DNA of 64,000 bases from an uncultured bacterium (lineage in GTDB: Bacteria > Bipolaricaulota > Bipolaricaulia > UBA7950 > UBA9294): the NCBI GenBank assembly GCA_903857865.1, contig CAIOGO010000018.1, forward strand, positions 23,588-87,587, written 5' to 3'. Position numbers and translations under genes: made by a program. The notes below the pieces were generated by a model. It had not been told where the DNA came from. It saw only the letters and a list, made by a program, of their open reading frames with translations, and ran no database searches. Positions 20,980-46,210 of the stretch are shown here, piece by piece. Within the stretch, counting starts at the first letter, position 1. The number at the start of each line of letters is the position of its first letter.

Positions 20980-21315
20980 CTAGAAGACGCATGCGTCGAG
21001 GAGCGAGAGGGCTTCCTGGAGAACCTCATCCGGCGCCTTTCCGATTCGCTTCGCCCGGCGAGTGCGGAAGTCGATCGACCGCATTTGCTCGACCGTGACG
21101 AAGCCGGTCACGCCGCCGCCCTCCGGGATCGCCACGTGGAACGGGCAGTCGCGGCGCGTGTTCGTGATCGGGCAGACGATGGCGAGCCCCGTGTGTTGAT
21201 TGAACAGGTCGTGACTGACGACGAGCGCCAGCCGACGGCCGCTCTGCTCGTGACCGGAGCGCGGATCGAACGCCACGGCGATGAAATCACCTTGCCGCGG
21301 AACGTACTCGGCCAT
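20980..21315 (-). CDS. mazF: MazF/PemK-family endoribonuclease toxin
   Basis: PemK fold signature (…GDFIAVAFDPRSGHEQSGRRLALVVSHDLFNQHTGLAIVCPITN…). 111 aa. Start abuts the MazE stop. Confidence 0.85.
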   Translation of the reverse strand: MAEYVPRQGDFIAVAFDPRSGHEQSGRRLALVVSHDLFNQHTGLAIVCPITNTRRDCPFHVAIPEGGGVTGFVTVEQMRSIDFRTRRAKRIGKAPDEVLQEALSLLDACVF

Positions 21316-21564
21316 CTACCAGACCTCGCGGCCCGCCGGCGGACCCCAGTCGAGTTCTTCGGACTTGTAGTCGGCGGGCATGTCCTTGACGAGCTGACGC
21401 AGATCGTGCCCGCCGCGCACCCGCCGCGCCGGCGTGATGACGAGGACGCCGTCACGCGCCGCCACCTCGACCGCGTCGCCCACGCTGAGGTCAACGTTCG
21501 AGAGCAGCTCCTTGCTCAGCCGAAGTCCCTGGCTGTTGCCCCACTTCTGGACCTTCGTGATCAT
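21316..21564 (-). CDS. mazE: MazE (AbrB/SpoVT-fold) antitoxin
   Basis: MITKVQKWGNSQGLRLSKELL… and a C-terminal …DWGPPAGREVW, which resembles E. coli MazE …DWGEPKDKEVW. Confidence 0.85.
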   Translation of the reverse strand: MITKVQKWGNSQGLRLSKELLSNVDLSVGDAVEVAARDGVLVITPARRVRGGHDLRQLVKDMPADYKSEELDWGPPAGREVW

Positions 21565-21642
21565 CGCGCTACCTCCAGCGGATAGCCGAAGTATAGCCCA
21601 ACAAGCCACTATGATGGAACACGGCGCAATCGCATGCATCAT

Positions 21643-23520: not shown

Positions 23521-23573
23521 CCCCCCATGTGGCCGGGATCGCCTGGGTGCGATCTCGCGAGGAGGAAGACGAC

Positions 23574-24281
23574 ATGTCGATGCCAAAGCGGATGGGGGCG
23601 GAGTTCTTCGGGACGTTCTGGTTGGTGTTGGGTGGGTGCGGGAGCGCGGTGTTGGCGGCCGCCTTCCCTGGGCTCGGAATCGGATTCGTCGGGGTGGCGC
23701 TCGCGTTCGGACTCACGGTCCTGACGATGGCCTATGCGATTGGCCACATTTCGGGCTGCCACCTGAATCCGGCGGTCTCGCTCGGTCTCTGGGTCGGAGG
23801 GCGGTTCCCGGCGAAGGACCTCGTGCCCTATGTCGTCGCTCAAGTTGCAGGCGCGGCGGCCGGCGCAGGGATCCTCTACCTCATTGCGACCGGGGCGCCG
23901 AGCTTCGACGTGACGGGCGGATTCGCGACGAACGGCTACGGGATTCACTCGCCGGGTGGCTACACGATGACGGCGGCCATCATTTGCGAGGTGGTCATGA
24001 CGGCGATGTTCCTCATGGTGATCCTCGGGGCGACGGACAAGCGGGCTCCGAAGGGCTTCGCGCCGATCGCCATCGGACTCGCGCTGACGCTCATCCACCT
24101 GATCTCGATTCCGGTCACGAACACGTCGGTCAACCCGGCGCGTTCGACGGGCGTCGCGATCTTCCAGGGCGGCTGGGCGCTCCAGCAGCTCTGGCTCTTC
24201 TGGGCCGCCCCCTTGGTCGGGGCGATCGTCGGCGGCATCGCGTACCGCCTGATCGGCGGCGCGAAGGGTCAAGCAGTCTAG
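23574..24281 (+). CDS. aqpZ: Aquaporin Z (MIP family water channel)
   Basis: Two NPA boxes (HLNPAVS and NPARS) and AqpZ-like length (235 aa). Start re-called at [18 protein letters not shown]. Confidence 0.92.
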
Positions 24282-24637: not shown

Positions 24638-25255
24638 GTGAGAACTTTCGACGAACGGCCGGTTGCCGCTGGCATCGTGAAGAAGGCGATCCGGGCGGCG
24701 CTTCGCGCTCCAGCGTACAACCATCTGTGGGAATGGGGCTTCATCCAGATCCACGATCGCTCGTTGCGCACGAGCCTCGCGGACGCAGCGGGCCTAGAGG
24801 ATGTCTCGGATCCCGACATCCTAGCCACGAAGTTCGCGTCGCTGCCGACGGAAGCGCGACAGATCTACCTGCGCGCGCTCCCGCTCCAGCGAACGATGGT
24901 GCTCACTGCTCCGGGGCTCCTCGTGCCCGTGTACCGACCGAAGCGGGGAGAACGGGCACCGGAAGGCCCGGCGGATCTGAACGCGTACGCCGCGATCTGG
25001 ATCGCGCTCGGCTACCTCCTCCTGTCGCTCGCCGAGGACGGGGTCTACGGCTGCACGATCATCCCCGGCCGGTCGAGCGAGGCACGGCATCTGTTGGGCA
25101 TTCCCGAAGACTGGGAGATCGCGACCCTGCTCCCGTTTGGCTACCCGCGCGGCCGCGTCGTGCGAAACGAGCATCCTTCGGACGTGGACGCCTTCCTGCA
25201 CGTCGACAAGTTCCGTGGGTTCTCCTTGCCGACCACGGTGGAGCCGATGGGGTAG
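24638..25255 (+). CDS. Nitroreductase-family flavoprotein. The start is unresolved (track start is GTG at 24638) and the N-terminal helix is encoded upstream, in frame, directly after the TGA of the preceding gene.
   Basis: Nitroreductase fold motifs (…RAPAYNHLWEWGFIQI…, C-terminal …RNEHPSDV…). The 14 codons 24596-24637 encode RGIELREALAARAT, the expected N-terminal helix (IELREAL…RTF), with no ATG, GTG or TTG. Confidence 0.75.
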   Translation: MRTFDERPVAAGIVKKAIRAALRAPAYNHLWEWGFIQIHDRSLRTSLADAAGLEDVSDPDILATKFASLPTEARQIYLRALPLQRTMVLTAPGLLVPVYRPKRGERAPEGPADLNAYAAIWIALGYLLLSLAEDGVYGCTIIPGRSSEARHLLGIPEDWEIATLLPFGYPRGRVVRNEHPSDVDAFLHVDKFRGFSLPTTVEPMG

Positions 25256-25318: not shown

Positions 25319-25822
25319 ATGAATCGTCGAGTCTTCTACGTGCTGGCCGTTGTTGCAGTCCTTGCGCTCCCGTTCGCCGTTGCTGCGCAAGATGGATTGT
25401 CACCGGCTGTCTCCGCAACTGAGCAGCTAGACAACCTGTCCGCGGGGCGTTCGTTCGGGATCGGGATCCAGGCGGAGTACCCGTGGGGCGGACTCATCTC
25501 GCTCCGTTACTGGGCGACGGACTGGCTCGGATTCGAGGGCGTCTTCTTCGTCCTCTCGAACGACGGAGAGACCTCGGGCATCGTGACCGCTCGCGCCCTC
25601 TACCGTGCCGTCGACGCGGCGGCCGTCGACTTTTACCTCGCGGGCGGCGCCTCGGTCGGTTTCTCGGCCGTCGGGAGCGACCCGGCGACCGGCATTCTGG
25701 TGGGCGGGATCGAGATCAACTTCTCGCAGCGGTTCGCGTGGAACGTTGAGTTCGGGCTATCGGCCACGATCTATGGCGAGGCGTGGACCACGTTCGGCAC
25801 TGGCATCCACTTCTACTTCTAG
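25319..25822 (+). CDS. Outer-membrane beta-barrel protein (OmpW/OmpA-like small porin family)
   Basis: Signal peptide, alternating amphipathic beta-strand pattern, and a C-terminal aromatic ending (GIHFYF). Confidence 0.7.
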   Translation: MNRRVFYVLAVVAVLALPFAVAAQDGLSPAVSATEQLDNLSAGRSFGIGIQAEYPWGGLISLRYWATDWLGFEGVFFVLSNDGETSGIVTARALYRAVDAAAVDFYLAGGASVGFSAVGSDPATGILVGGIEINFSQRFAWNVEFGLSATIYGEAWTTFGTGIHFYF

Positions 25823-25867
25823 TTCGCCTTGGGGCGGCGAGCCATTGCATCTCGCCGCCCCAAGGCG

Positions 25868-26740
25868 CTACGGCTTTCGCGCGCTCACGCAGATGCTCGA
25901 CACCGTGGCCGCGAGGAGATGCGCCGTCTCGTCGGTCAACCCGACGTCCTCGAGGCGCAGGGCCTGGCCGTCGACAACGATCACCGAGGACCCGGAGTCC
26001 TCATTCTCTTGCGACTCGCGGCGCTCGAAAGCATCCTCGGCGAACGTTTCCTTGACGACTGTGACGTCTCGGAACCCGGCGTCGCGGATGGCGCCGAGGT
26101 AGTCGTCGATCTGGGATGCTCCGGCGATGCATCCGACGTAGTGTTCCATGGACTCGCGGACTTCTGTGGGAAGTTCTCCGCGCAGGACGATGTCGGAGAC
26201 CATCAGTCGTCCGCCGCGCTTGAGGGCGCGATGCGCCTCGCGGAACACCTGCGGCTTGTCGGGCGAGAGATTTACGACGCAGTTCGAGATGACGATGTCG
26301 ACCGAGGCGTCGGCGACAGGCAGGTGCTCGATCTCGCCGAGGCGGAACTCGACGTTCTCGATGCCTTCCTTGCGCGCGTTCTCCCTTGCGCGCTCGATCA
26401 TCTCCGGCGTCATGTCGACGCCGATGGCGCGGCCGGTCGGGCCGACCTTTTCCGCGGCGAGGAAGCAGTCAATGCCCGCTCCGGAACCGAGGTCGAGCAC
26501 GACCTCGCCCTTCTTGAGCGATGCGAGGGCTGTCGGATGGCCGCAACCGAGGCCGAGGTCGGCACCTTGGGGAATGGAACGCAACTCGTCCGCGCTGTAG
26601 CCGATGGCCTGGCTCACGGGCGAGGCGCTCTCCGAGCAGCACGTGCCGCCGCAACCGCTCTTGCACGACGTCGCGCGCTTGGCGTAGTTCTCGCGCACGG
26701 ACTTCCGGATTTCGTCATCGCGCTTCGCGTTCTTACTCAT
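25868..26740 (-). CDS. arsM: Arsenite S-adenosylmethionine methyltransferase
   Basis: Class I SAM MTase motif (VLDLGSGAGID) plus the conserved ArsM cysteines (…CKSGCGGTCC… and …LGCGHP…). About 290 aa. Confidence 0.85.
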   Translation of the reverse strand: MSKNAKRDDEIRKSVRENYAKRATSCKSGCGGTCCSESASPVSQAIGYSADELRSIPQGADLGLGCGHPTALASLKKGEVVLDLGSGAGIDCFLAAEKVGPTGRAIGVDMTPEMIERARENARKEGIENVEFRLGEIEHLPVADASVDIVISNCVVNLSPDKPQVFREAHRALKRGGRLMVSDIVLRGELPTEVRESMEHYVGCIAGASQIDDYLGAIRDAGFRDVTVVKETFAEDAFERRESQENEDSGSSVIVVDGQALRLEDVGLTDETAHLLAATVSSICVSARKP

Positions 26741-27008
26741 TCGTCCTCTCCTTGGGCTGCAGCCCTACCGCCCCAATCATCACGCGGACGCCGTCCACGA
26801 GCGCGTCCGCCTTCACCAGCACGAGGCAACAGATCTCGCCCTTTGACTCGATCGTCGTGAGCGCGAGCTTGTCCCCGGCGGAGAGGCCCATTCGCTCTCT
26901 CACATCCTTGGGCAGCACCATCTGGCCACGTTCGTCGACGCGGACGACGGCCGCGACCTGACAGCACTCTCCGCATTCGTCGCGCTTCTTTCTCCGAGAG
27001 TCGGCCAT
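26733..27008 (-). CDS. AbrB/MazE/SpoVT-fold DNA-binding protein with a Cys-rich N-terminus (ECGECC, ICC). Candidate regulator of arsM.
   Basis: Start re-called at MADSRRKK with SD GGGAGGAG. Swapped-hairpin motif RGQMVLPKDVRERMGLSAGDKL. Overlaps the arsM start by 8 nt. Confidence 0.65.
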   Translation of the reverse strand: MADSRRKKRDECGECCQVAAVVRVDERGQMVLPKDVRERMGLSAGDKLALTTIESKGEICCLVLVKADALVDGVRVMIGAVGLQPKERTNE

Positions 27009-27024
27009 GGACTCCTCCCGCACG

Positions 27025-27050
27025 ATCTGATGTATCAGATAAATCAGAGA
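27025..27050. promoter_or_regulatory. Perfect inverted repeat ATCTGAT-GT-ATCAGAT plus a third half-site (AAATCAGAG) within an unusually AT-rich segment. Candidate operator/promoter of the regulator-arsM operon.
   Basis: The 7-2-7 palindrome lies immediately upstream of the regulator's SD and start, in a local AT-rich island within a GC-rich genome. Confidence 0.5.
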
Positions 27051-27177
27051 GTACACTCGATGGCCGAGGCCTGTCAAACCGGCGGCTGGACATTTCACGC
27101 GCAACCCCAGCGAAGGCAAGAGAATTCGGCGGCTGCCTCGTGGGCGTGGCGTCGGCACGCGTGGCTATGCCCCGGGG

Positions 27178-28542
27178 CTACGCCCCCGGGGTGGGTGAGG
27201 ACGCCGACGCCGGCTTGTCCTCCGCCTTCGCGTCGTGGTCCGGCACGAGGTCTTCGAGGTTGCGCACGGCGGGAACGAAGAAGAGGACGATGAGGCAGGC
27301 GAGGCAGTAGACGACTCCTGCGAGAACGTACTGGAGCCCGAGGCCGGAGCCTGGCGACGTGCCGACGAGCCAGCCGAACGCGTGCGACAACCAGGTGGAG
27401 GACGTCATCGCCGGCTCGGTCACGTAGTCGGCCAGCGCTCCGGCGAGGACGGGTGTGATGGGCAAGAGCGAGAAGGCAATGAGCCGCCGCGCCGCGAACA
27501 CGCGCCCCTGAACGTCCGGCGGGACTTTGGCCTGCCAAATCGCTTGGGCGGCGCTGTTGGACAAGCACACGGCCAGCATTCCGAGCGCGGCGGTCGGGAT
27601 CCAGAACGCGAGGCTGCGTCCGAACCCGAACAGGAAGAGGCCGAGGAACCCAAGGAGGAACTCGCCGACGAAGATGTTGGTCGTCTTCCGCTTGAACCCG
27701 CCCCACGCGCTTACGAGGAGGCCTCCGGCCACCCCGCCGACGGCGGCCGCCGACATCACAGCGCCGAGGGAAGCGCTGTGGTTCCCCGTGCGAGCCAGGA
27801 TGAACGGGGCGACGAGGCCCATGCCGTTGACGAAGTTCAGGATGGCAAAGAAGAGGGTAAGGCCGAGGAGACCCTTCCTCGCGAAGATGTACTTGAACCC
27901 GAAGATCGCCTCGCGCAGGAGGTGGCTGCGGGCCGCAGCGCCCTCCGCGGAGGGCGGAGGCGTCGGGATGTGGACGACGAACAGGGTTCCGATGGCGAAA
28001 GCGAAGGTCGCCAGATCGATCACGAGGATGCCGGTGAGTCCGACGATCGGGTAGAGCGCGCCGGCGAGAATCGGCGCGAACACGCCGGGTCCGGAATCGA
28101 CGAGCGACATCATCCCATTGGCCCGCTGGTACTGCTCCTTGGGCACCATGGTGCTGATGGCCGCTGAGTACGCCGGCCACTGGAACGTGTTCCCGAGGCC
28201 GACGAGGATCGCCGTGAGGTACAGGTGCCAGACGGAGAGGCCGCCGGTCGTGTGGAGCACGAGGACGGCCATGGTGCCCGCCGCCGCGGCGAGGTCGCTC
28301 AGCATCATCATCAGCTTGCGGTTGTAGCGGTCGACCATCGCCCCGGCGATCGGGGACAGGACGAGGAAGGGGATGAGGAACGACGTCGAAATCACGCCGA
28401 GGGCGGTGGCGCTGCCCGTCGTCTGGTACGCCCAGATCGTGAGCGCGAAGCTCGTCGCGCCTGACGCGAGAACGGAGACAAGTTGCCCCGTCCACACGAA
28501 CGTGAAGCCCACGAAGCCTGTCGGCTTCTGACGAGCAGCCAT
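27178..28542 (-). CDS. MFS transporter (EntS/macrolide-efflux-like, 12 TM)
   Basis: Start re-called at MAARQKPTGFVGFTFVW. MFS motif region (…GAMVDRYNRKLMMM…). 12 hydrophobic segments. Confidence 0.85.
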   Translation of the reverse strand: MAARQKPTGFVGFTFVWTGQLVSVLASGATSFALTIWAYQTTGSATALGVISTSFLIPFLVLSPIAGAMVDRYNRKLMMMLSDLAAAAGTMAVLVLHTTGGLSVWHLYLTAILVGLGNTFQWPAYSAAISTMVPKEQYQRANGMMSLVDSGPGVFAPILAGALYPIVGLTGILVIDLATFAFAIGTLFVVHIPTPPPSAEGAAARSHLLREAIFGFKYIFARKGLLGLTLFFAILNFVNGMGLVAPFILARTGNHSASLGAVMSAAAVGGVAGGLLVSAWGGFKRKTTNIFVGEFLLGFLGLFLFGFGRSLAFWIPTAALGMLAVCLSNSAAQAIWQAKVPPDVQGRVFAARRLIAFSLLPITPVLAGALADYVTEPAMTSSTWLSHAFGWLVGTSPGSGLGLQYVLAGVVYCLACLIVLFFVPAVRNLEDLVPDHDAKAEDKPASASSPTPGA

Positions 28543-28695
28543 TCCCTGTCCTCCCCGATGGTTGAGTGTGCCGCACATCTTCCGGCACCGAAACACCGGG
28601 CGCCACGGGGCGATGTCTCACGTCGCGAGCCCGGACGCTTGCTCTCAGAGTCAGGACGACACGTCTCGCGAATGTCGCGTGGGCAGCGTGGGCGA

Positions 28696-29778
28696 TCAGG
28701 CTGAGGCCTGCGTCGTCGTGCCTTGACGTTCCAGCTCGAGGAGGCGGTGCTTGCGCCACAGTCCGCCACCGTAGCCGACAAGCTGGCCGTCCTTCCCGAT
28801 CACGCGGTGACAAGGAATGAGGATCGAGATCCGGTTGTCGCCGTTGGCGCGGGCCACGGCGCGCACGGCCGTGGGTCGTCCGATGGCGTTGGCCTGATCT
28901 TGATAGGATCGTGTCTCCCCGCACGGGATTTCCTGAAGAGCTTGCCAGACGCGTTCCTGGAACGGCGTTCCCGCGGTGACGAGGGGGACTGTGAACGCTC
29001 GCCGCGTGCCGGCGAAGTACTCGGCCAGTTGGCGTTCGAGGAGAGCGACGTGGGAACTCGTCCCGGGCAGGGCGCGGGCATGGAGCGCCTTCTGGATGCG
29101 CCCGAGCTGCGTCTCCAGCATGCGGCGGTCGGCGAACTCGAGGAGGCACAGGCCTTCATCGGTCGCGCCCGCGACCATGGGTCCGAGGGGAGTCGGAATT
29201 CGCGTCACCGTGACGAGGCGCAGACTCCGGCTGTGTGCCGGCGCCTTGCCCGTCGTCTTGGCGAACGCCTCGGTGAAGCCGCTCAACGACTCGTAGCCCG
29301 CCCCATAGGCAGCCGCGGCCACGCCGTCGCCTGCCTGGATCCGGCCAAAGGCCGTGGCGAGCCGCAGCGCGCGGCCGTAGGCGTGGAAGGTCATCCCATG
29401 GTGCTTGAGGAACCAGCGACGCACGCGATCCGGCTCGAGTCCTCGGTCGCGCAGATCCTGATCCTTCCAGCGCCGGTCCGGAGCGGCGTGGACGTCGTCG
29501 AGAAGGGGCCGAACCCATTCCGGTGCCTCGCCAGGCACCCCAACCGGGTCGCACAGCTTGCAGGGGCGGTACCCGTAATGCAGCGCGTCGGTCGCGGACG
29601 GGAAAAACTCCACATTCTCGCGCTTCGGCTTTCTGGCGCCGCACGTGAGGCGGCAGAAGATGCCCGTCGTGATGACGCCGACGACGCACACGCCGTCGAA
29701 TTGGCTGTCTCGCTCGATGAGTGCCTTGTAGAGGAGGTCAGCGGGCGGCAACTCGCGGGTTCGCGCTTGGGTATCCAT
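28696..29778 (-). CDS. ada: Bifunctional Ada-like regulator: Ada Zn-binding/AraC HTH domain plus O6-methylguanine-DNA methyltransferase domain
   Basis: N-terminal Cys cluster (CRLTCGARKPKRENVEFF…CKLC), AraC-type HTH, and C-terminal MGMT active site IPCHRVIG. Confidence 0.85.
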   Translation of the reverse strand: MDTQARTRELPPADLLYKALIERDSQFDGVCVVGVITTGIFCRLTCGARKPKRENVEFFPSATDALHYGYRPCKLCDPVGVPGEAPEWVRPLLDDVHAAPDRRWKDQDLRDRGLEPDRVRRWFLKHHGMTFHAYGRALRLATAFGRIQAGDGVAAAAYGAGYESLSGFTEAFAKTTGKAPAHSRSLRLVTVTRIPTPLGPMVAGATDEGLCLLEFADRRMLETQLGRIQKALHARALPGTSSHVALLERQLAEYFAGTRRAFTVPLVTAGTPFQERVWQALQEIPCGETRSYQDQANAIGRPTAVRAVARANGDNRISILIPCHRVIGKDGQLVGYGGGLWRKHRLLELERQGTTTQASA

Positions 29779-29921
29779 GGGACAACGTCTCCTTTGGCGT
29801 CTCGCGTTACGGTAGACGGACGGCGCCGTCTGGGCAACCGGAAACCTGGCGAAGATGTCGTCCAATGCTGTGCTTCCGCTCCCCCGGTCGGGTGCAACTT
29901 CCTTTGTCTACGGAAGAGTCG

Positions 29922-30548
29922 ATGTGGATGAGCGAACGCGAAGCTCCTACCATGCCTGCGATGAACGAGACTCCGAGAGCGATCGTCGTCGCTGGGCCCA
30001 ACGGAGCGGGCAAGACGACGTTTGTGCGGCAGTACCTCGAGACCCACGTGGGGTTCGAGTACCTGAGCGCCGACGATATCGCGCTCGAACTCTCGCCGAG
30101 CCGGCCGGAGACGGTCTACGTGAGTGCAGGCAAGATCTTCTTTCGAAGGCTGCGCAACCTTCTCGCTGTGCGCCAGAGTTTCGTGACGGAGGTGACGCTT
30201 TCGAGTTCCCGCCTTGGCCGACACATCGCGGCGTTTCACGCTGCCGGTTACGAGGTGGAACTCGTGTTCATCCACTTGGAGTCGGCCGAGCTGTGCGTCG
30301 CCCGTGTCGCCGAGCGGGTGCGCAAGGGCGGGCACCGCGTTGCGCCGCGCGACATTCGTCGCCGATACGGACGCAGCGTGACGAACTTCTGGACGCGCTA
30401 CCGCGCGATCGTGGATGGCTGGTTTCTCATGCAGAACTCGTTCCAGTCCTTCAGTCTGGTGGCGTACGGCACTCGGGAGTCCTTGATCGTCGAGGATCCG
30501 GCGCTGTATGATGCCTTCGTGAGAGGTCTGGTTGATGCAACGTCCTAA
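29922..30548 (+). CDS. Zeta-toxin/AAA_33-like P-loop kinase (COG4185-like)
   Basis: Walker A AIVVAGPNGAGKTTF. About 208 aa with zeta/PezT-like fold length. Divergently oriented from ada. Confidence 0.7.
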   Translation: MWMSEREAPTMPAMNETPRAIVVAGPNGAGKTTFVRQYLETHVGFEYLSADDIALELSPSRPETVYVSAGKIFFRRLRNLLAVRQSFVTEVTLSSSRLGRHIAAFHAAGYEVELVFIHLESAELCVARVAERVRKGGHRVAPRDIRRRYGRSVTNFWTRYRAIVDGWFLMQNSFQSFSLVAYGTRESLIVEDPALYDAFVRGLVDATS

Positions 30549-30825
30549 GACGATTCGGGTGGGGCTAAAGGACAAGGCGCGTCACTTCGAGCGCGTTGGC
30601 GCTGAGGCCACGCGCCGGGCGCAGCAGGAGAGTCGGCGCCGCGGCGTTCCGAACGTCTACTCCTGGCGCGGGAGGCTCGTGTTCGAGCATCCGCACTCCG
30701 GCAGGCTCCTGGAATGGGATCCCGCGGCGCCACGGACGGGTCGCGCCGTCGGCGTCATTGCCCGTAGCTTCCGTCAGGCCGGCCGACATCTCCTCGTCTT
30801 CCTCCGCGCTCTTCGGTTCGAGTAA
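30532..30825 (+). CDS. Hypothetical 97-aa basic protein overlapping the 3' end of the zeta-like kinase gene
   Basis: ATG 17 nt inside the upstream gene (translational-coupling geometry). No recognisable domain. Confidence 0.3.
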   Translation: MMQRPKTIRVGLKDKARHFERVGAEATRRAQQESRRRGVPNVYSWRGRLVFEHPHSGRLLEWDPAAPRTGRAVGVIARSFRQAGRHLLVFLRALRFE

Positions 30826-42788: not shown

Positions 42789-43045
42789 CTCCTCCTCGAC
42801 CGTCTTCTCTTCCGGTTGCGCGGGTTTTGGCGGCGCGTTCTTGCGCGGCGGGCGACGATCGGGCTCGACGTCCTCGTAGAAGCGAATGAGACCTCCCTGC
42901 GACGCGTGCCGGAATCGAGAGCGAGTGTTCGTTTGCCAGCGTCAGAGCCGGAGTATACCCGCGGCGAGCGTGAGCGAGCGGACGGCGGCCGCCGGGGATG
43001 GATCCGCGGGAGAGTCGCGTGCATACTTGCACACATCTGCAAGAG

Positions 43046-43351
43046 ATGGAAAGGAGCAACGTGCTCGTCACGAGTCGCGTCGTGAAAATCGGCAAGGCCT
43101 TGGCTCACCCGGCCCGCGTGCGGATTCTGGTCATGCTCAAGGAAGGGGAGCTCTGCGGCTGCGAATTCACTCCGAGTCTGTGTCTTGACCCTTCGGTCGT
43201 CTCGCGCCATCTCTCGACTCTCGCGCAGGCCGGCCTCATCGAGTCGCGCCGTGACGGTGCTCGCGTGATGTGGAGTCTGTGCGACCCCGCGGTCATCGGC
43301 CACCTTGAGCGCCTCGCGGCGCTTACGCAGGAGAAGGAGGCGGTGCGGTGA
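43046..43351 (+). CDS. ArsR/SmtB-family metalloregulator
   Basis: HTH (ALAHPARVRILVMLKEGELCGCEFTPSL…VSRHLSTLAQAGLIE) with Cys pairs (CGCEF). A 4-nt overlap with the downstream permease. Confidence 0.8.
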   Translation: MERSNVLVTSRVVKIGKALAHPARVRILVMLKEGELCGCEFTPSLCLDPSVVSRHLSTLAQAGLIESRRDGARVMWSLCDPAVIGHLERLAALTQEKEAVR

Positions 43352-44460
43352 AACGAGGACGAGGAGCGCCCACGGCGGTTCCGAAAGAGCCGCCTCCAGC
43401 GCCTACGGGTCCTGGCTTTACCTCTTTGTCGCGGCGGGAGCGCCTCGCGCTGCGCCTGACCCTCGTGCTCTCCGGAGCGGCGGCGTGGTGGCTTGCGTAT
43501 ACGAACCTCGAGGCGTTCGCCACGTGGTTCACCTACCATCTGCTGGGGATGACGGCGGGGACCCCCCTGGCCTCGGCTGTTGCCTTCCTGGTCTACGAGG
43601 CCCCCAAGGTCCTCATGCTCCTGGCCTTGGTCGTGTTCGGCGTCGGGATCCTCCGCACATTCTTCACCCCGGAGCGGACTCGTCGCCTCCTCGCCGGCAA
43701 GCGCGAGGTGCTGGGCAACGTGCTGGCCTCCCTGCTCGGCGTGGTAACGCCGTTCTGCTCCTGCTCCGCCGTGCCGCTCTTCATTGGCTTCGTCAGCACT
43801 GGGGTCCCGCTCGGGGTGACGTTCTCGTTCCTCATCGCGGCGCCGATGATCAACGAGGTCGCCCTCGTTCTGCTGTTCGGCCTGTTCGGGTGGAAGGTGG
43901 CAGCGCTGTACATGGGAACGGGTCTGGTGATTGCCATGGTGTCGGGCTGGATTGTCGGGCGCCTGAAGCTTGAGCGGTGGGTCGAGGACTGGGTCCACCA
44001 AACATCGGCGGGCAACGGGCACGCCGCTGACGAAGGTCCGCTGACCTGGAGCGATCGCGCACGACTCGGCCGGCACGCCGTGAAGGACATCGTCGGGAAG
44101 GTGTGGCCCTACGTGCTGGTCGGCATCGCTGTCGGGGCAGGCATCCACAGCTACGTCCCGGAGAACTTCATGGCCTCCATCATGGGCAAGGGAGCGTGGT
44201 GGTCCGTTCCTCTCGCCGTGGTGATCGGCATTCCGATGTATTCCAACGCGGCCGGTATCATCCCCGTGGTGCAAGCGCTCCTCAGCAAGGGGGCGGCGCT
44301 CGGCACGGTGCTCGCGTTCATGATGTCGGTCATCGGGCTGTCGCTGCCGGAAATGATCATCCTGCGCAAGGTTCTCAAGGTTCCGCTCATTGTGACCTTC
44401 GCGAGCGTCGTAGGCGCCGGGATCGTGGTCGTGGGCTACCTGTTCAATGCTGTCCTATGA
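43348..44460 (+). CDS. arsP: COG0701/DUF318 permease with the TPFCSCS motif (ArsP-type organoarsenical efflux permease)
   Basis: Conserved motif VVTPFCSCSAVPLF. Two-repeat TM topology. 370 aa. Confidence 0.75.
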   Translation: MKRGRGAPTAVPKEPPPAPTGPGFTSLSRRERLALRLTLVLSGAAAWWLAYTNLEAFATWFTYHLLGMTAGTPLASAVAFLVYEAPKVLMLLALVVFGVGILRTFFTPERTRRLLAGKREVLGNVLASLLGVVTPFCSCSAVPLFIGFVSTGVPLGVTFSFLIAAPMINEVALVLLFGLFGWKVAALYMGTGLVIAMVSGWIVGRLKLERWVEDWVHQTSAGNGHAADEGPLTWSDRARLGRHAVKDIVGKVWPYVLVGIAVGAGIHSYVPENFMASIMGKGAWWSVPLAVVIGIPMYSNAAGIIPVVQALLSKGAALGTVLAFMMSVIGLSLPEMIILRKVLKVPLIVTFASVVGAGIVVVGYLFNAVL

Positions 44461-44595
44461 CCAGCGGCGGGCGAAGACCGGGTGCAGAGAAACGCAACCC
44501 GGTGCGAGCGGGGAGTCCGCAAGGGACCATGGAGGGGAAAGATAGTGGATACCTGATCTGCGCCACCACTCGAACCAGCGGAAGAGGGAGGGCCA

Positions 44596-44826
44596 GTGCG
44601 AATCGAGGTGCTAGGAACGGGGTGCCCGAAGTGCAAGGCAACGATGGCCAACGCGCAGAAGGCGGTGGCAGAGCTGGGCATCCGGGCGGAGGTTGTCAAG
44701 GTCGAGGATCTCATGGAGATTGTGTCGCGCGGCGTGATGATGACACCCGCGCTTGTGGTTGAGGGGCAGATCAAAGTTGTCGGGAGGACGCCGACGGTGG
44801 ACGAGATCAAGAAGTGGCTCCTGTAG
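44596..44826 (+). CDS. Small thioredoxin-fold protein (redox-active disulfide protein 2 family), the usual partner of COG0701 permeases
   Basis: 76 aa. N-terminal CPKC (GTGCPKCKAT). TIGR00412-like pattern. Confidence 0.75.
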   Translation: MRIEVLGTGCPKCKATMANAQKAVAELGIRAEVVKVEDLMEIVSRGVMMTPALVVEGQIKVVGRTPTVDEIKKWLL

Positions 44827-44921
44827 ACGGGCAACGCGCGATGCACTCGACGACGACGAGGCACGCGTGAGGTCGGATGTGCAATGCTGCCCGAGGTAGA
44901 CCGAAACACGGAGGGGATAGG

Positions 44922-45518
44922 GTGGACAACAAGGTATTGCTGATCATCGTTTTCGCGCTCTTCGCTGTCGCTGCCGCGCTCGTCGTCTTTGCACCGGGAG
45001 AGCAGGAAGCGCAGACTGCGAGTAGGGCGTCAGTGCCATCCCAGACTGAGGGAGCAGCGTCCACGACGGCTGTCTCCGCGTCGCCAGACGTGCAAACGAC
45101 GCTCGCGTCGGGAGTAGACCTGGCCGGGGAGTCGCAGACGGCAAGCAACGTCGCCTCCGCGAGCTCGACGCCGGCGAGCCATCGCTTTGTTGCGACCTAC
45201 TTCCACAACACCGCGAGGTGCGTGACCTGCCGCAGTATTGAGCAACGTTCCAGAGATACGATCCAAACCGCCTTCGCCGCCGAGATCGTGTCCGGCCGAT
45301 TGGCGTGGCGTGCCCTTAACATGGAGGAAAAGGAAAACGAGCACTACGCCATCGACTACGACCTGCCGTATGCATCGCTCGTCCTCGCTGAAATGGACGG
45401 GGAACGCGAAGTGCGCTTCAAGGTGCTGGAGCAGACGTGGGACCTCGTCCACAAGAGGCAGCCGCTGTTGGAGGACTACGTTGAGAATGAGACGCGCGCT
45501 TTTCTAGAGGGACGCTAG
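44922..45518 (+). CDS. Membrane-anchored thioredoxin-like CxxC protein (ArsF-family-like, which is my recollection of the NCBI family name)
   Basis: GTG start with SD GGAGGGGA. N-terminal TM, Ser/Thr/Ala linker, then a domain with FHNTARCVTCRS (CxxC). Confidence 0.55.
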   Translation: MDNKVLLIIVFALFAVAAALVVFAPGEQEAQTASRASVPSQTEGAASTTAVSASPDVQTTLASGVDLAGESQTASNVASASSTPASHRFVATYFHNTARCVTCRSIEQRSRDTIQTAFAAEIVSGRLAWRALNMEEKENEHYAIDYDLPYASLVLAEMDGEREVRFKVLEQTWDLVHKRQPLLEDYVENETRAFLEGR

Positions 45519-46210
45519 TGCCTGATTGGGTTCTTGGTGCAGCTTCCGCGTTCTGGTTCGGGATTCTGACCTCAATCAGCCCTTGCCCACTCGCGACGAA
45601 CATTACGGCGATGTCCTTCGTCGGACGCCGCGTCGGGAGTCCAGGCAAGGTTCTGCTCGCCGGCGTTCTGTACACGGTGGGACGTGCGCTCACCTACCTG
45701 GTTCTGGGTGCTCTTCTCGTTGGGAGCCTCCTTTCCGCCCCGCGGTTGTCCCTTGTGTTGCAGAGGACGATGAACAAGGCTCTCGGCCCGATCCTCATCG
45801 TGGTTGGGGTCTTGCTGCTCGGCGTGATCCCTCTTCGCTTGCCGTCGTCCGGACTCACCCAGCGTATGGGAGAGCGGATCGCGAAATGGGGACCGTTCGG
45901 CGCGCTCTTGCTGGGAGTCCTCTTCGCCCTCACCTTCTGTCCGGTGTCGGCTGCCTTCTTCTTTGGCAGCCTTCTCCCGTTGGCAATTGAACAGCAGTCG
46001 CCCGTGTTGTTGCCGGCCCTGTTTGGGATCGGTACCGCGATCCCGGTTCTCGGGTTCGCGGTGGCGATCGCTCTGGGTGCCAAGTCGCTCGGCAAGGTTT
46101 TCGGCAAGGTCACGAAGATCGAGCGGTGGGCCAGGCTCATCACCGGGGTGGTGTTCATTGGCGTGGGCATCTATCTGATGCTGGTGCACGTGTTCCGGCT
46201 ATGGGCATAG
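45518..46210 (+). CDS. CcdA/DsbD-like thiol-disulfide transporter membrane protein (ArsG-family-like, which is my recollection of the NCBI family name)
   Basis: Six TM. Conserved Cys in TM1 (SISPCPL) and TM4 (LTFCPV), typical of CcdA/DsbD beta-domain proteins. Start overlaps the upstream stop. Confidence 0.7.
   Translation: MPDWVLGAASAFWFGILTSISPCPLATNITAMSFVGRRVGSPGKVLLAGVLYTVGRALTYLVLGALLVGSLLSAPRLSLVLQRTMNKALGPILIVVGVLLLGVIPLRLPSSGLTQRMGERIAKWGPFGALLLGVLFALTFCPVSAAFFFGSLLPLAIEQQSPVLLPALFGIGTAIPVLGFAVAIALGAKSLGKVFGKVTKIERWARLITGVVFIGVGIYLMLVHVFRLWA

Follow-up and report, generated by a model that had tools for sequence, protein, structure and literature searches.

Results

The hgcC-like gene and arsM

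The DNA studied here is a 64,000-nucleotide stretch from an uncultured bacterium of the Bipolaricaulota (contig CAIOGO010000018.1, positions 23,588 to 87,587 of the forward strand), referred to below as the window. It carries arsM and, directly upstream of it on the same strand, a small hgcC-like gene whose product is a candidate regulator of arsM. The hgcC-like gene (26733..27008, minus strand) opens at ATG 27008, ends at 26733 and encodes the 91-aa cysteine-rich protein MADSRRKKRDECGECCQVAAVVRVDERGQMVLPKDVRERMGLSAGDKLALTTIESKGEICCLVLVKADALVDGVRVMIGAVGLQPKERTNE. Its sequence reads MADSRRKKRDECGECCQ...EICCLVL..., with ECGECC at residues 11-16 and ICC at residues 59-61. The Shine-Dalgarno sequence GGGAGGAG was read directly at 27012..27019 (minus strand), 3 nt before the ATG, and GGAGG-like sequences were present at the equivalent position in most homologous loci. 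A longer GTG-started open reading frame, extending to 27158, was considered improbable, as the homologues are 85-95 aa long and GGGAGGAG precedes ATG 27008.

The arsM gene (25868..26740, minus strand) encodes a 290-aa arsenite S-adenosylmethionine methyltransferase, which scored 349 bits with NF008823 (cut-off 263) and matched PF13847 with E = 1.4e-43. The protein keeps the motifs TCC, LGCGHP, SNCVVN and VGCIAG, which we take to be the cysteine motifs expected of an active enzyme. The start of arsM and the stop of the hgcC-like gene overlap by 8 nt (26733-26740), and the two genes are probably translationally coupled via this overlap. A 17-bp G+C-rich hairpin at 25826..25866, predicted by RNA folding with -40.6 kcal/mol and z = -5.98, lies between the convergent stops of arsM and of a plus-strand gene ending at 25822. 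It is likely to mark the end of the hgcC-arsM transcript. No terminator was called after arsM by the terminator scan because the hairpin has no T-run.

Family and fold of the hgcC-like protein

The hgcC-like protein scored 96.4 bits with the NCBIfam equivalog NF040962, "HgcAB-associated protein HgcC" (curated cut-off 70), its residues 15-79 being aligned to positions 1-65 of the 70 in the profile. The cysteine features of NF040962, a pair before strand 1 and a CC in strand 4, were both present. Scores above the cut-offs were obtained also with the MazE antitoxin family PF04014 (35.6 bits, cut-off 24.7) and with the AbrB family TIGR01439 (45.7 bits, cut-off 28.3). No match to the ArsR/SmtB winged helix-turn-helix (PF01022, NF033788) was detected up to E = 10. 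The hgcC-like protein thus belongs to the HgcC family and has the AbrB/MazE/SpoVT fold. The size of the family is moderate, with 345 clusters at 50% identity (E <=1e-10) among 1.84 billion representatives.

An AlphaFold2 (AF2) model of the monomer was built from an alignment of 93 sequences. The two-hairpin plus helix protomer fold of the AbrB/MazE/SpoVT superfamily was found in the model, in which residues 21-70 had a predicted local distance difference test (pLDDT) value of about 90, the N-terminal tail was disordered (residues 1-12, pLDDT <50) and the C-terminal helix comprised residues 67-81. The top 19 Foldseek matches in the PDB were all SpoVT/AbrB/Sso7c4/C68/MazE swapped-hairpin domains, with probabilities of 0.85-1.0 for ranks 1-18 and 0.38 for rank 19. 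The E-values were weak (0.02-0.5), as expected for a domain of only 50 residues. A profile search of PDB sequences was in agreement, the best matches being the N-domains of SpoVT and AbrB with E of about 1e-3, and it returned no solved structure of any HgcC family member. An earlier note on this DNA, made from the letters alone, had described a 91-aa AbrB/MazE/SpoVT-fold protein overlapping the start of arsM by 8 nt; the translation, PF04014, TIGR01439 and the AF2/Foldseek results bear this out.

The conserved core motif of the protein is VDERGQMVLPKDVR. In the alignments, the V-D-E-R-G-Q-M-V-L-P-K-D-x-R segment was nearly invariant family-wide and across phyla, DERGQMVLPKDxR being the most conserved part of the HgcC family. 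This part presumably corresponds to the DNA-contacting loop and helix of AbrB and MazE. Homodimeric DNA binding is predicted for the hgcC-like protein, and the conserved operator array described below gives indirect support to this prediction.

Gene neighbourhood of the relatives

In a genome scan with one genome per species, at least 570 stretches were found to encode a relative of the hgcC-like protein. Synteny, operators and tree positions were counted in the best 80 related loci, which are those closest to the arsM-linked query. The relatives occurred in many anaerobe-type lineages, including Bipolaricaulota (the closest), Thermotogae, Syntrophales, Dehalococcoidia, Nitrospirota, Aminicenantes and methanogens.

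The profiling of AbrB-fold genes beside arsM, which the earlier note had proposed, turned out in favour of a link: ArsM was encoded directly downstream and on the same strand in 64 of the 80 loci. HgcA was encoded directly downstream in 16, and the start of an HgcB-like ferredoxin gene followed hgcA in a representative locus. Any other conserved neighbour family was present in at most 9 of the 80. Neither a conserved toxin family nor another conserved DNA-binding protein was found among the neighbours in these loci. The identities of the partners were confirmed by NCBIfam (HgcA 400 bits, ArsM 341 bits), an hgcA-linked HgcC member scored 123 bits on NF040962, and the same pairing was seen in three independent metagenome contexts. 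In two loci of one lineage, hgcC-arsM was followed on the same strand by hgcA 2-3.5 kb later (L025 458-4105; L029 6001-8221). Arsenic and mercury methylation genes are there found in one neighbourhood behind one regulator gene.

In the window, no HgcA cap-helix motif was detected by a six-frame regular-expression search of the 64 kb, and the hgcAB adjacency to which the name HgcC refers is absent from the locus. The name ("HgcAB-associated") therefore fits only part of the family, given that arsM is the partner in 64 of the 80 closest loci, and here, and hgcA in 16.

In a neighbour-joining tree, the hgcA-linked proteins were located in at least 5 places among the arsM-linked ones; the tree of this 90-residue protein is weakly resolved. 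Two paralogues were found in the same Syntrophaceae metagenome-assembled genome (CAZODI01; L012 and L013), one before arsM and one before hgcA, both with box arrays. Two copies of hgcC-arsM (L038 and L054) are carried by the cultured Desulfoferrobacter suflitae DRH4. An unpaired copy, L036, was located beside a divergent ArsR-permease pair.

The operator array and the promoter

A perfect 7-2-7 palindrome, ATCTGAT GT ATCAGAT, was read directly at 27025..27040, beginning 5 nt from the Shine-Dalgarno sequence, and a third box, ATCAGAG, at 27043-27049. The AT content of 27020-27060 was 58.5% compared with 34.8% in the window. The palindrome, the additional box and the AT-rich patch that the earlier note had placed upstream of the Shine-Dalgarno sequence are thus all there, and they form part of a conserved operator. 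Three tandem 9-bp palindromic units, however, describe this operator better than a palindrome plus a half-site does. The units span 27024..27050 (minus strand) and read on the gene strand TCTCTGATT (unit 1, 27050-27042), TATCTGATA (unit 2, 27041-27033) and CATCAGATC (unit 3, 27032-27024), the palindrome corresponding to units 2 and 3. No other array of this kind is present in the window. The idea that the palindrome is significant by itself was rejected, with 11 perfect 7-2-7 repeats in the window against about 9 expected. The pattern TCWGATNNATCWGA, with at most 1 mismatch, was found in the window only at this site, in two overlapping matches against 0.23 expected; two matches were reached in 2 of 100 shuffles.

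The motif recurred upstream of homologues in many phyla. The density of the TCWGA box (TCAGA or TCTGA) upstream of the homologues was 2.03 per 120 nt, compared with 0.16 in the background of the loci and 0.23 in shuffled sequences. Successive boxes were spaced by 9 nt (53 times), 18 nt (19 times) or 27 nt (3 times) and almost never by other values. The repeating unit was determined to be the 9-bp palindrome AATCWGAWT (161 units; T 0.88, C 0.92, G 0.93, A 0.93), and in the family operator 3-4 such units stand head to tail in a strict 9-bp register. When an array was defined as at least 3 units with at most 1 core mismatch within 220 nt upstream of the gene, arrays were present upstream of 48 of the 80 genes, as against 2 in the remaining 805 kb of the loci. 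By class, they preceded 34 of 61 arsM-linked, 10 of 14 hgcA-linked and 3 of 5 archaeal genes. Both exceptions in the 805 kb were located farther upstream in the same operons (L017 4663-4689; L050 2455-2481), at distances of 1.3 kb (L017) and about 380 nt (L050) from the regulator gene, and therefore some operons may start with another gene. The region directly upstream of the regulator gene in L017 has no boxes and looks coding. Apart from the L017 and L050 sites, no other copies of the array were found in the window or in the 805 kb, and so no wider regulon was detected there. Fur, LexA and ArsR-type operators were rejected as explanations of the boxes on the basis of their consensus sequences and of the co-occurrence of the array only with the hgcC-like gene.

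A perfect -35-like hexamer, TTGACA, was read directly at 27072..27077 (minus strand). In the homologous bacterial loci a TTGAC box stands mostly 27-29 nt before the first operator box, the distance in the window being 29 nt, so that the first box overlaps the -10 region and the transcription start. The putative -10 hexamer, TACTCT (27048..27053, minus strand), is weak, with 3 of 6 matches and an 18-nt spacer to TTGACA, and it overlaps the first operator unit. The promoter is predicted from the perfect TTGACA together with its spacing to the boxes, which is conserved in other loci.

In the archaeal loci L031, L072, L078 and L024, the array was located about 40-110 nt upstream of the gene, directly ahead of or abutting an A+T-rich TATA-like element, e.g. 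TTCAGAAATATATAAATA. As this position differs from the bacterial one past the -35 box, the mode of control may differ as well and may consist in blocking of the TATA-binding protein and transcription factor B or in activation.

The conserved cysteines

The conservation of the cysteines was read from alignments of 28, 93 and 80 members. The earlier note had pointed to the ECGECC and ICC clusters as possible thiol sites. Both are real, but ECGECC is only partly conserved: C15, C16, C60 and C61 are kept in the family and C12 is lineage-specific. The C15/C16 pair is placed in the flexible tail just before strand 1 and the vicinal C60/C61 pair in strand 4. C16, C60 and C61 were about 100% conserved in both the arsM-linked and the hgcA-linked class, and C15 was kept in 60 of 61 arsM-linked members. 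Vicinal cysteine pairs are the binding sites for As(III) or methyl-As(III) (MAs(III)) of ArsD and of ArsR variants.

Among 216 family proteins carrying the core motif, the strand-4 CC was present in 195 and the N-tail CC in 137, most of the others having xC or Cx. Many members of the 80 loci have another CC some 10 residues ahead of the conserved pair (CC-x-P-...-CC), and an extra CC, CxC or CxxC was found in 50 of the 188 members with a long enough tail in a set of 267 proteins. One subgroup has C-G-C-Y in place of x-x-C-C. The N-terminal tail looks like a variable thiol-rich arm. In an unpaired copy on an Aminicenantes chromosome (L035; OY969586, 6001-6276), two of the four conserved cysteines are lost, with N at position 15 and Y at 60. 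The downstream genes of L035 are convergent and unrelated, and the upstream box array is retained.

Other genes in the window

Two genes upstream of the hgcC-arsM module lie on the same minus strand and encode a major facilitator superfamily (MFS) transporter (Mef/EntS-like, 27178-28596) and an Ada-type protein with an Ada zinc-binding domain, an AraC helix-turn-helix and an O6-methylguanine methyltransferase domain (28696-29865). This arrangement is repeated in identical metagenome contigs, and more distant loci lack it. A gene for a Zeta-toxin/AAA_33-like P-loop kinase (29955-30548, plus strand) is divergent from the Ada-like gene and is followed by a 100-aa open reading frame with no family match (30523-30825), and the two may represent another toxin-antitoxin-like pair. 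Three plus-strand genes converge on arsM. The first two encode an MIP-family channel (23571-24281) and a nitroreductase (24638-25255), and the third (25319-25822) encodes a 167-aa protein without any family match, the N-terminus of which looks hydrophobic and signal-peptide-like. MIP channels conduct As(III) in other organisms.

That arsM is not preceded by an ArsR-family gene, as the earlier note had stated, holds for the genes scanned, which cover about 6 kb on each side of arsM. A canonical ArsR/SmtB regulator gene does exist 16 kb from arsM (42974-43351, plus strand; NF033788, 76.6 bits), where it heads another arsenical cluster (42974-46210) on the plus strand. Behind the regulator gene come those for a SaoE/SO_0444-type permease (43309-44460) and for an ArsF-family nitroreductase-subunit-like protein (44871-45518). 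The last gene of the cluster (45491-46210) encodes an ArsG-family aromatic arsenical efflux permease (284 bits). In this genome, ArsR would therefore serve the organoarsenical genes and the AbrB-fold protein arsM. On the other side of the module, a MazE-like antitoxin gene (21316-21642, minus strand; PF04014, NF007312-like) is directly followed by a MazF/PemK toxin gene (20980-21315, minus strand). In contrast to the hgcC-like gene, which has no toxin partner, these form a genuine type II toxin-antitoxin pair (20980-21642).

Discussion

The comparison of related loci lends good support to a regulator of arsM that has an AbrB fold and is not an ArsR, and it is highly probable that the hgcC-like protein is a dedicated DNA-binding regulator of this gene. 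The full mechanism, in which the protein would act as an autoregulated thiol-sensing repressor of hgcC-arsM released by a thiophilic metal(loid), is proposed with moderate confidence. Autoregulation is known from MazE and AbrB, whose operators lie at their own promoters. An autoregulated repressor is the simplest reading because the AbrB-fold protein is the only DNA-binding protein that travels with the array, and the match of an invariant DNA-contact motif with an invariant box is most simply read as dimers on palindromic units. We infer that the array is bound by the hgcC-like protein and that binding represses rather than activates; the geometry of the oligomer and the ligand given below are inferred likewise.

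According to the proposed mechanism, dimers of the hgcC-like protein would contact the DNA via D-E-R-G-Q-M-V-L-P-K-D-x-R, with one dimer per palindromic 9-bp unit. The three units (27050-27024) start inside the -10 hexamer and cover the predicted transcription start, and protein bound there would occlude RNA polymerase. Neighbouring dimers would probably be bridged by the amphipathic C-terminal helix (67-81). The four conserved thiols per subunit (C15 and C16; C60 and C61) could take up a soft metal(loid), by which the barrel or the tail would be distorted and the DNA released. The four thiols and the restriction of the partners to two methylases of soft metal(loid)s suggest As(III), MAs(III) or Hg(II) as the inducer. 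As(III) or MAs(III) would be the most likely ligand here, and Hg(II) possibly that of the hgcAB-linked relatives; Hg(II), MAs(III), redox state or S-adenosylhomocysteine (SAH) are possible alternatives. Release of the DNA would turn on arsM, translationally coupled through the 8-nt overlap, the operon elsewhere being hgcC-hgcAB.

The hgcA-linked HgcC members are of the same family and size as the hgcC-like protein and share its core motif, its cysteine pairs and the upstream box array. They differ in the partner, which is hgcA instead of arsM. With the As(III)- and MAs(III)-responsive ArsR/SmtB repressors, among them the ArsR-like protein that is co-transcribed with hgcAB in Pseudodesulfovibrio mercurii ND132, the hgcC-like protein shares the logic of a small repressor which is first in its own operon, has its operator at the promoter and is presumed to sense by cysteine thiolates. 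Several ArsR types also use vicinal cysteine pairs, and ArsR-type genes likewise precede both arsM and hgcAB. The folds are nevertheless unrelated, a winged helix-turn-helix in ArsR/SmtB and a swapped-hairpin barrel in the hgcC-like protein, and the operator is a single imperfect dyad in the former and an array of tandem 9-bp palindromic units in the latter. AbrB, SpoVT, MazE, Sso7c4 and MraZ have the same fold and DNA-contact region, and they are autoregulated from sites at their own promoters, as is proposed for the hgcC-like protein. MraZ reads phased tandem repeats. The hgcC-like protein differs from this group by having no toxin partner and no sporulation or transition-state role, by its conserved cysteine pairs and by its dedicated enzyme partner; its 9-bp palindromic unit is sharply defined, whereas AbrB has no clear consensus. 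ArsD is also a small protein of ars operons with vicinal As(III)-binding cysteine pairs. It has no sequence or fold relationship to the hgcC-like protein (no Pfam match at E = 10), and its partner is the ArsA ATPase rather than a methyltransferase.

Zhang et al. 2023 (ISME Commun, PMC10349881) had already reported a gene annotated as prlF/mazE/abrB immediately before hgcA, both in 14 of 35 contigs and in 8 of 31 confirmed methylators, mostly archaea. The gene was proposed there as a putative hgcAB regulator within a toxin-antitoxin framework. Cysteines, an operator or a link to arsM are not mentioned for this gene in PMC10349881, and the HgcC family extends across many bacterial phyla instead of being mainly archaeal as proposed there. 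In the searchable literature, which is incomplete, Zhang et al. 2023 was the only relevant paper to come up, and no paper linking the HgcC family to arsM or describing its operator or cysteine pairs was found. New here are the predominant partnership with arsM, the tandem 9-bp operator and the conserved cysteine pairs, in a family that is itself named but uncharacterised. The distinct class of metalloid sensor suggested by the earlier note is accordingly supported, on comparative grounds, as far as a non-ArsR regulator of arsM with an AbrB fold is concerned; as a family it had already been named (NF040962, HgcC).

Several observations weigh against the proposed mechanism or limit its reach. 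The 64:16 ratio of arsM to hgcA is biased by the arsM-linked query and is not a family-wide estimate. By the criterion used, 32 of the 80 loci have no clean three-unit array. The 7-2-7 palindrome alone is within chance, the window having 11 perfect inverted repeats compared with 8.9 +/- 3.2 in simulations. No sigma-70 promoter was called upstream of the hgcC-like gene by the consensus promoter scan because the -10 hexamer matches at only 3 of 6 positions. C15 is variable in the hgcA-linked members, where it is kept in 8 of 14, and the N-terminal cysteine pattern varies between CC, CxC and xC. As adjacent cysteines in a beta-strand face opposite ways, chelation by C60 and C61 together would need distortion of the strand or partners from the other subunit. 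Finally, all the identified hosts are of anaerobe-type lineages, and the cysteines could therefore hold an Fe-S cluster or zinc, or sense redox.

Of the rival explanations, one has to be taken most seriously, although we consider it unlikely: the hgcC-like protein would be the DNA-binding regulator of the operon and would answer to another signal, namely an Fe-S or zinc site, a redox, sulfide or thiol switch, or SAH/S-adenosylmethionine (SAM). The anaerobe-type hosts and the variable N-terminal cysteines are compatible with such a signal, and the cyanobacterial AbrB2 repressor is controlled through a cysteine whose thiol is modified. In ND132, the ArsR-like hgcAB regulator, an unrelated protein, answers to both SAH and arsenic, and SAM is the methyl donor common to ArsM and HgcAB (PMC11588087), so that a signal shared by arsM and hgcAB need not be a metal(loid). 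However, a domain of about 50 residues plus one helix has no obvious nucleoside pocket for SAH or SAM, and vicinal CC pairs, which are characteristic of sites for As(III), MAs(III) and Hg(II), make poor Fe-S ligands. That the only partners are two metal(loid) methylases, with no other SAM enzyme or redox enzyme among them, also points to the methylase substrates.

The remaining explanations question the regulatory role itself. The hgcC-like protein could be a metallochaperone or substrate carrier which, in the way that ArsD serves ArsA, delivers As(III) to ArsM or Hg(II) to HgcAB, with DNA binding secondary or absent and the array read by another factor. The position of a cysteine pair in or next to a flexible tail (pLDDT <50 for residues 1-12) and the tight genetic coupling to the enzyme, including the 8-nt overlap, would suit a carrier, and ArsD, which carries vicinal cysteine pairs, was first described as a weak repressor. 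This explanation is nevertheless rather improbable: the part of the protein most conserved across phyla is the AbrB-type DNA-contact loop and helix, the array occurs with the hgcC-like gene and essentially nowhere else in the 805 kb, no other DNA-binding protein is conserved nearby, and a single carrier would need to fit both a Rossmann-fold methyltransferase and a membrane corrinoid protein, which are structurally unrelated. That the protein is an orphan MazE/PrlF-type antitoxin or a toxin-antitoxin remnant beside arsM by accident, with the palindrome as an ordinary autoregulatory site, is hardly credible. Automated annotations do call relatives 'antitoxin PrlF', PF04014 is the MazE antitoxin family, and a real mazEF pair is present in the same window. 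Yet the scores with PrlF (NF007429, 16.9 bits, cut-off 125) and with the Deinococcus-type MazE (NF050106, 21.2 bits, cut-off 65) are far below those required, whereas the curated cut-off of the distinct family NF040962 is exceeded. There is no adjacent toxin here, arsM being downstream and the MFS transporter gene upstream, and none is conserved in the 80 loci. Instead of a long toxin-binding tail, the protein has a short helical C-terminus, and it carries conserved cysteine pairs. The earlier note had named an orphan MazE-like antitoxin, with homologues never linked to arsenic genes, as the outcome that would overturn its proposal; the occupation of the downstream slot by arsM in 64 and by hgcA in 16 of the 80 loci contradicts it.

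The locus thus adds to what is known of the HgcC family: a catalogued, uncharacterised family appears as the conserved partner of arsM or hgcAB in 80 loci, drawn from at least 570 stretches. Its operator unit of 9 bp is defined, and each subunit has four conserved thiols. The autoregulated repressor model offers a 27-bp DNA target and four mutable cysteines, a possible scaffold for a biosensor, and the box array is a sequence signature by which co-regulated genes could be predicted in metagenomes. To our knowledge, the only tested hgcAB regulator is the ArsR-like protein in one strain. Tentatively, and with somewhat more doubt than trust, it can be proposed that a single family of thiol-based AbrB-fold sensors, using a single operator code (tandem AATCWGAWT), controls arsM or hgcAB depending on the genome, across bacteria and archaea. 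If this is true, the HgcC family would be a second class of metalloid sensors beside ArsR, structurally unrelated to it, and arsM and hgcAB would be switched on by the same chemical signal. In functional terms, hgcAB would then be part of metalloid (arsenic) metabolism and not of mercury detoxification. The proposal bears on the control of hgcAB expression, on the purpose of HgcAB, which concerns mercury biogeochemistry, and on the trigger of anaerobic arsenic methylation. If arsenic is the ligand for both types of partner, the HgcC family would give independent support to the proposed arsenic link of mercury methylation.

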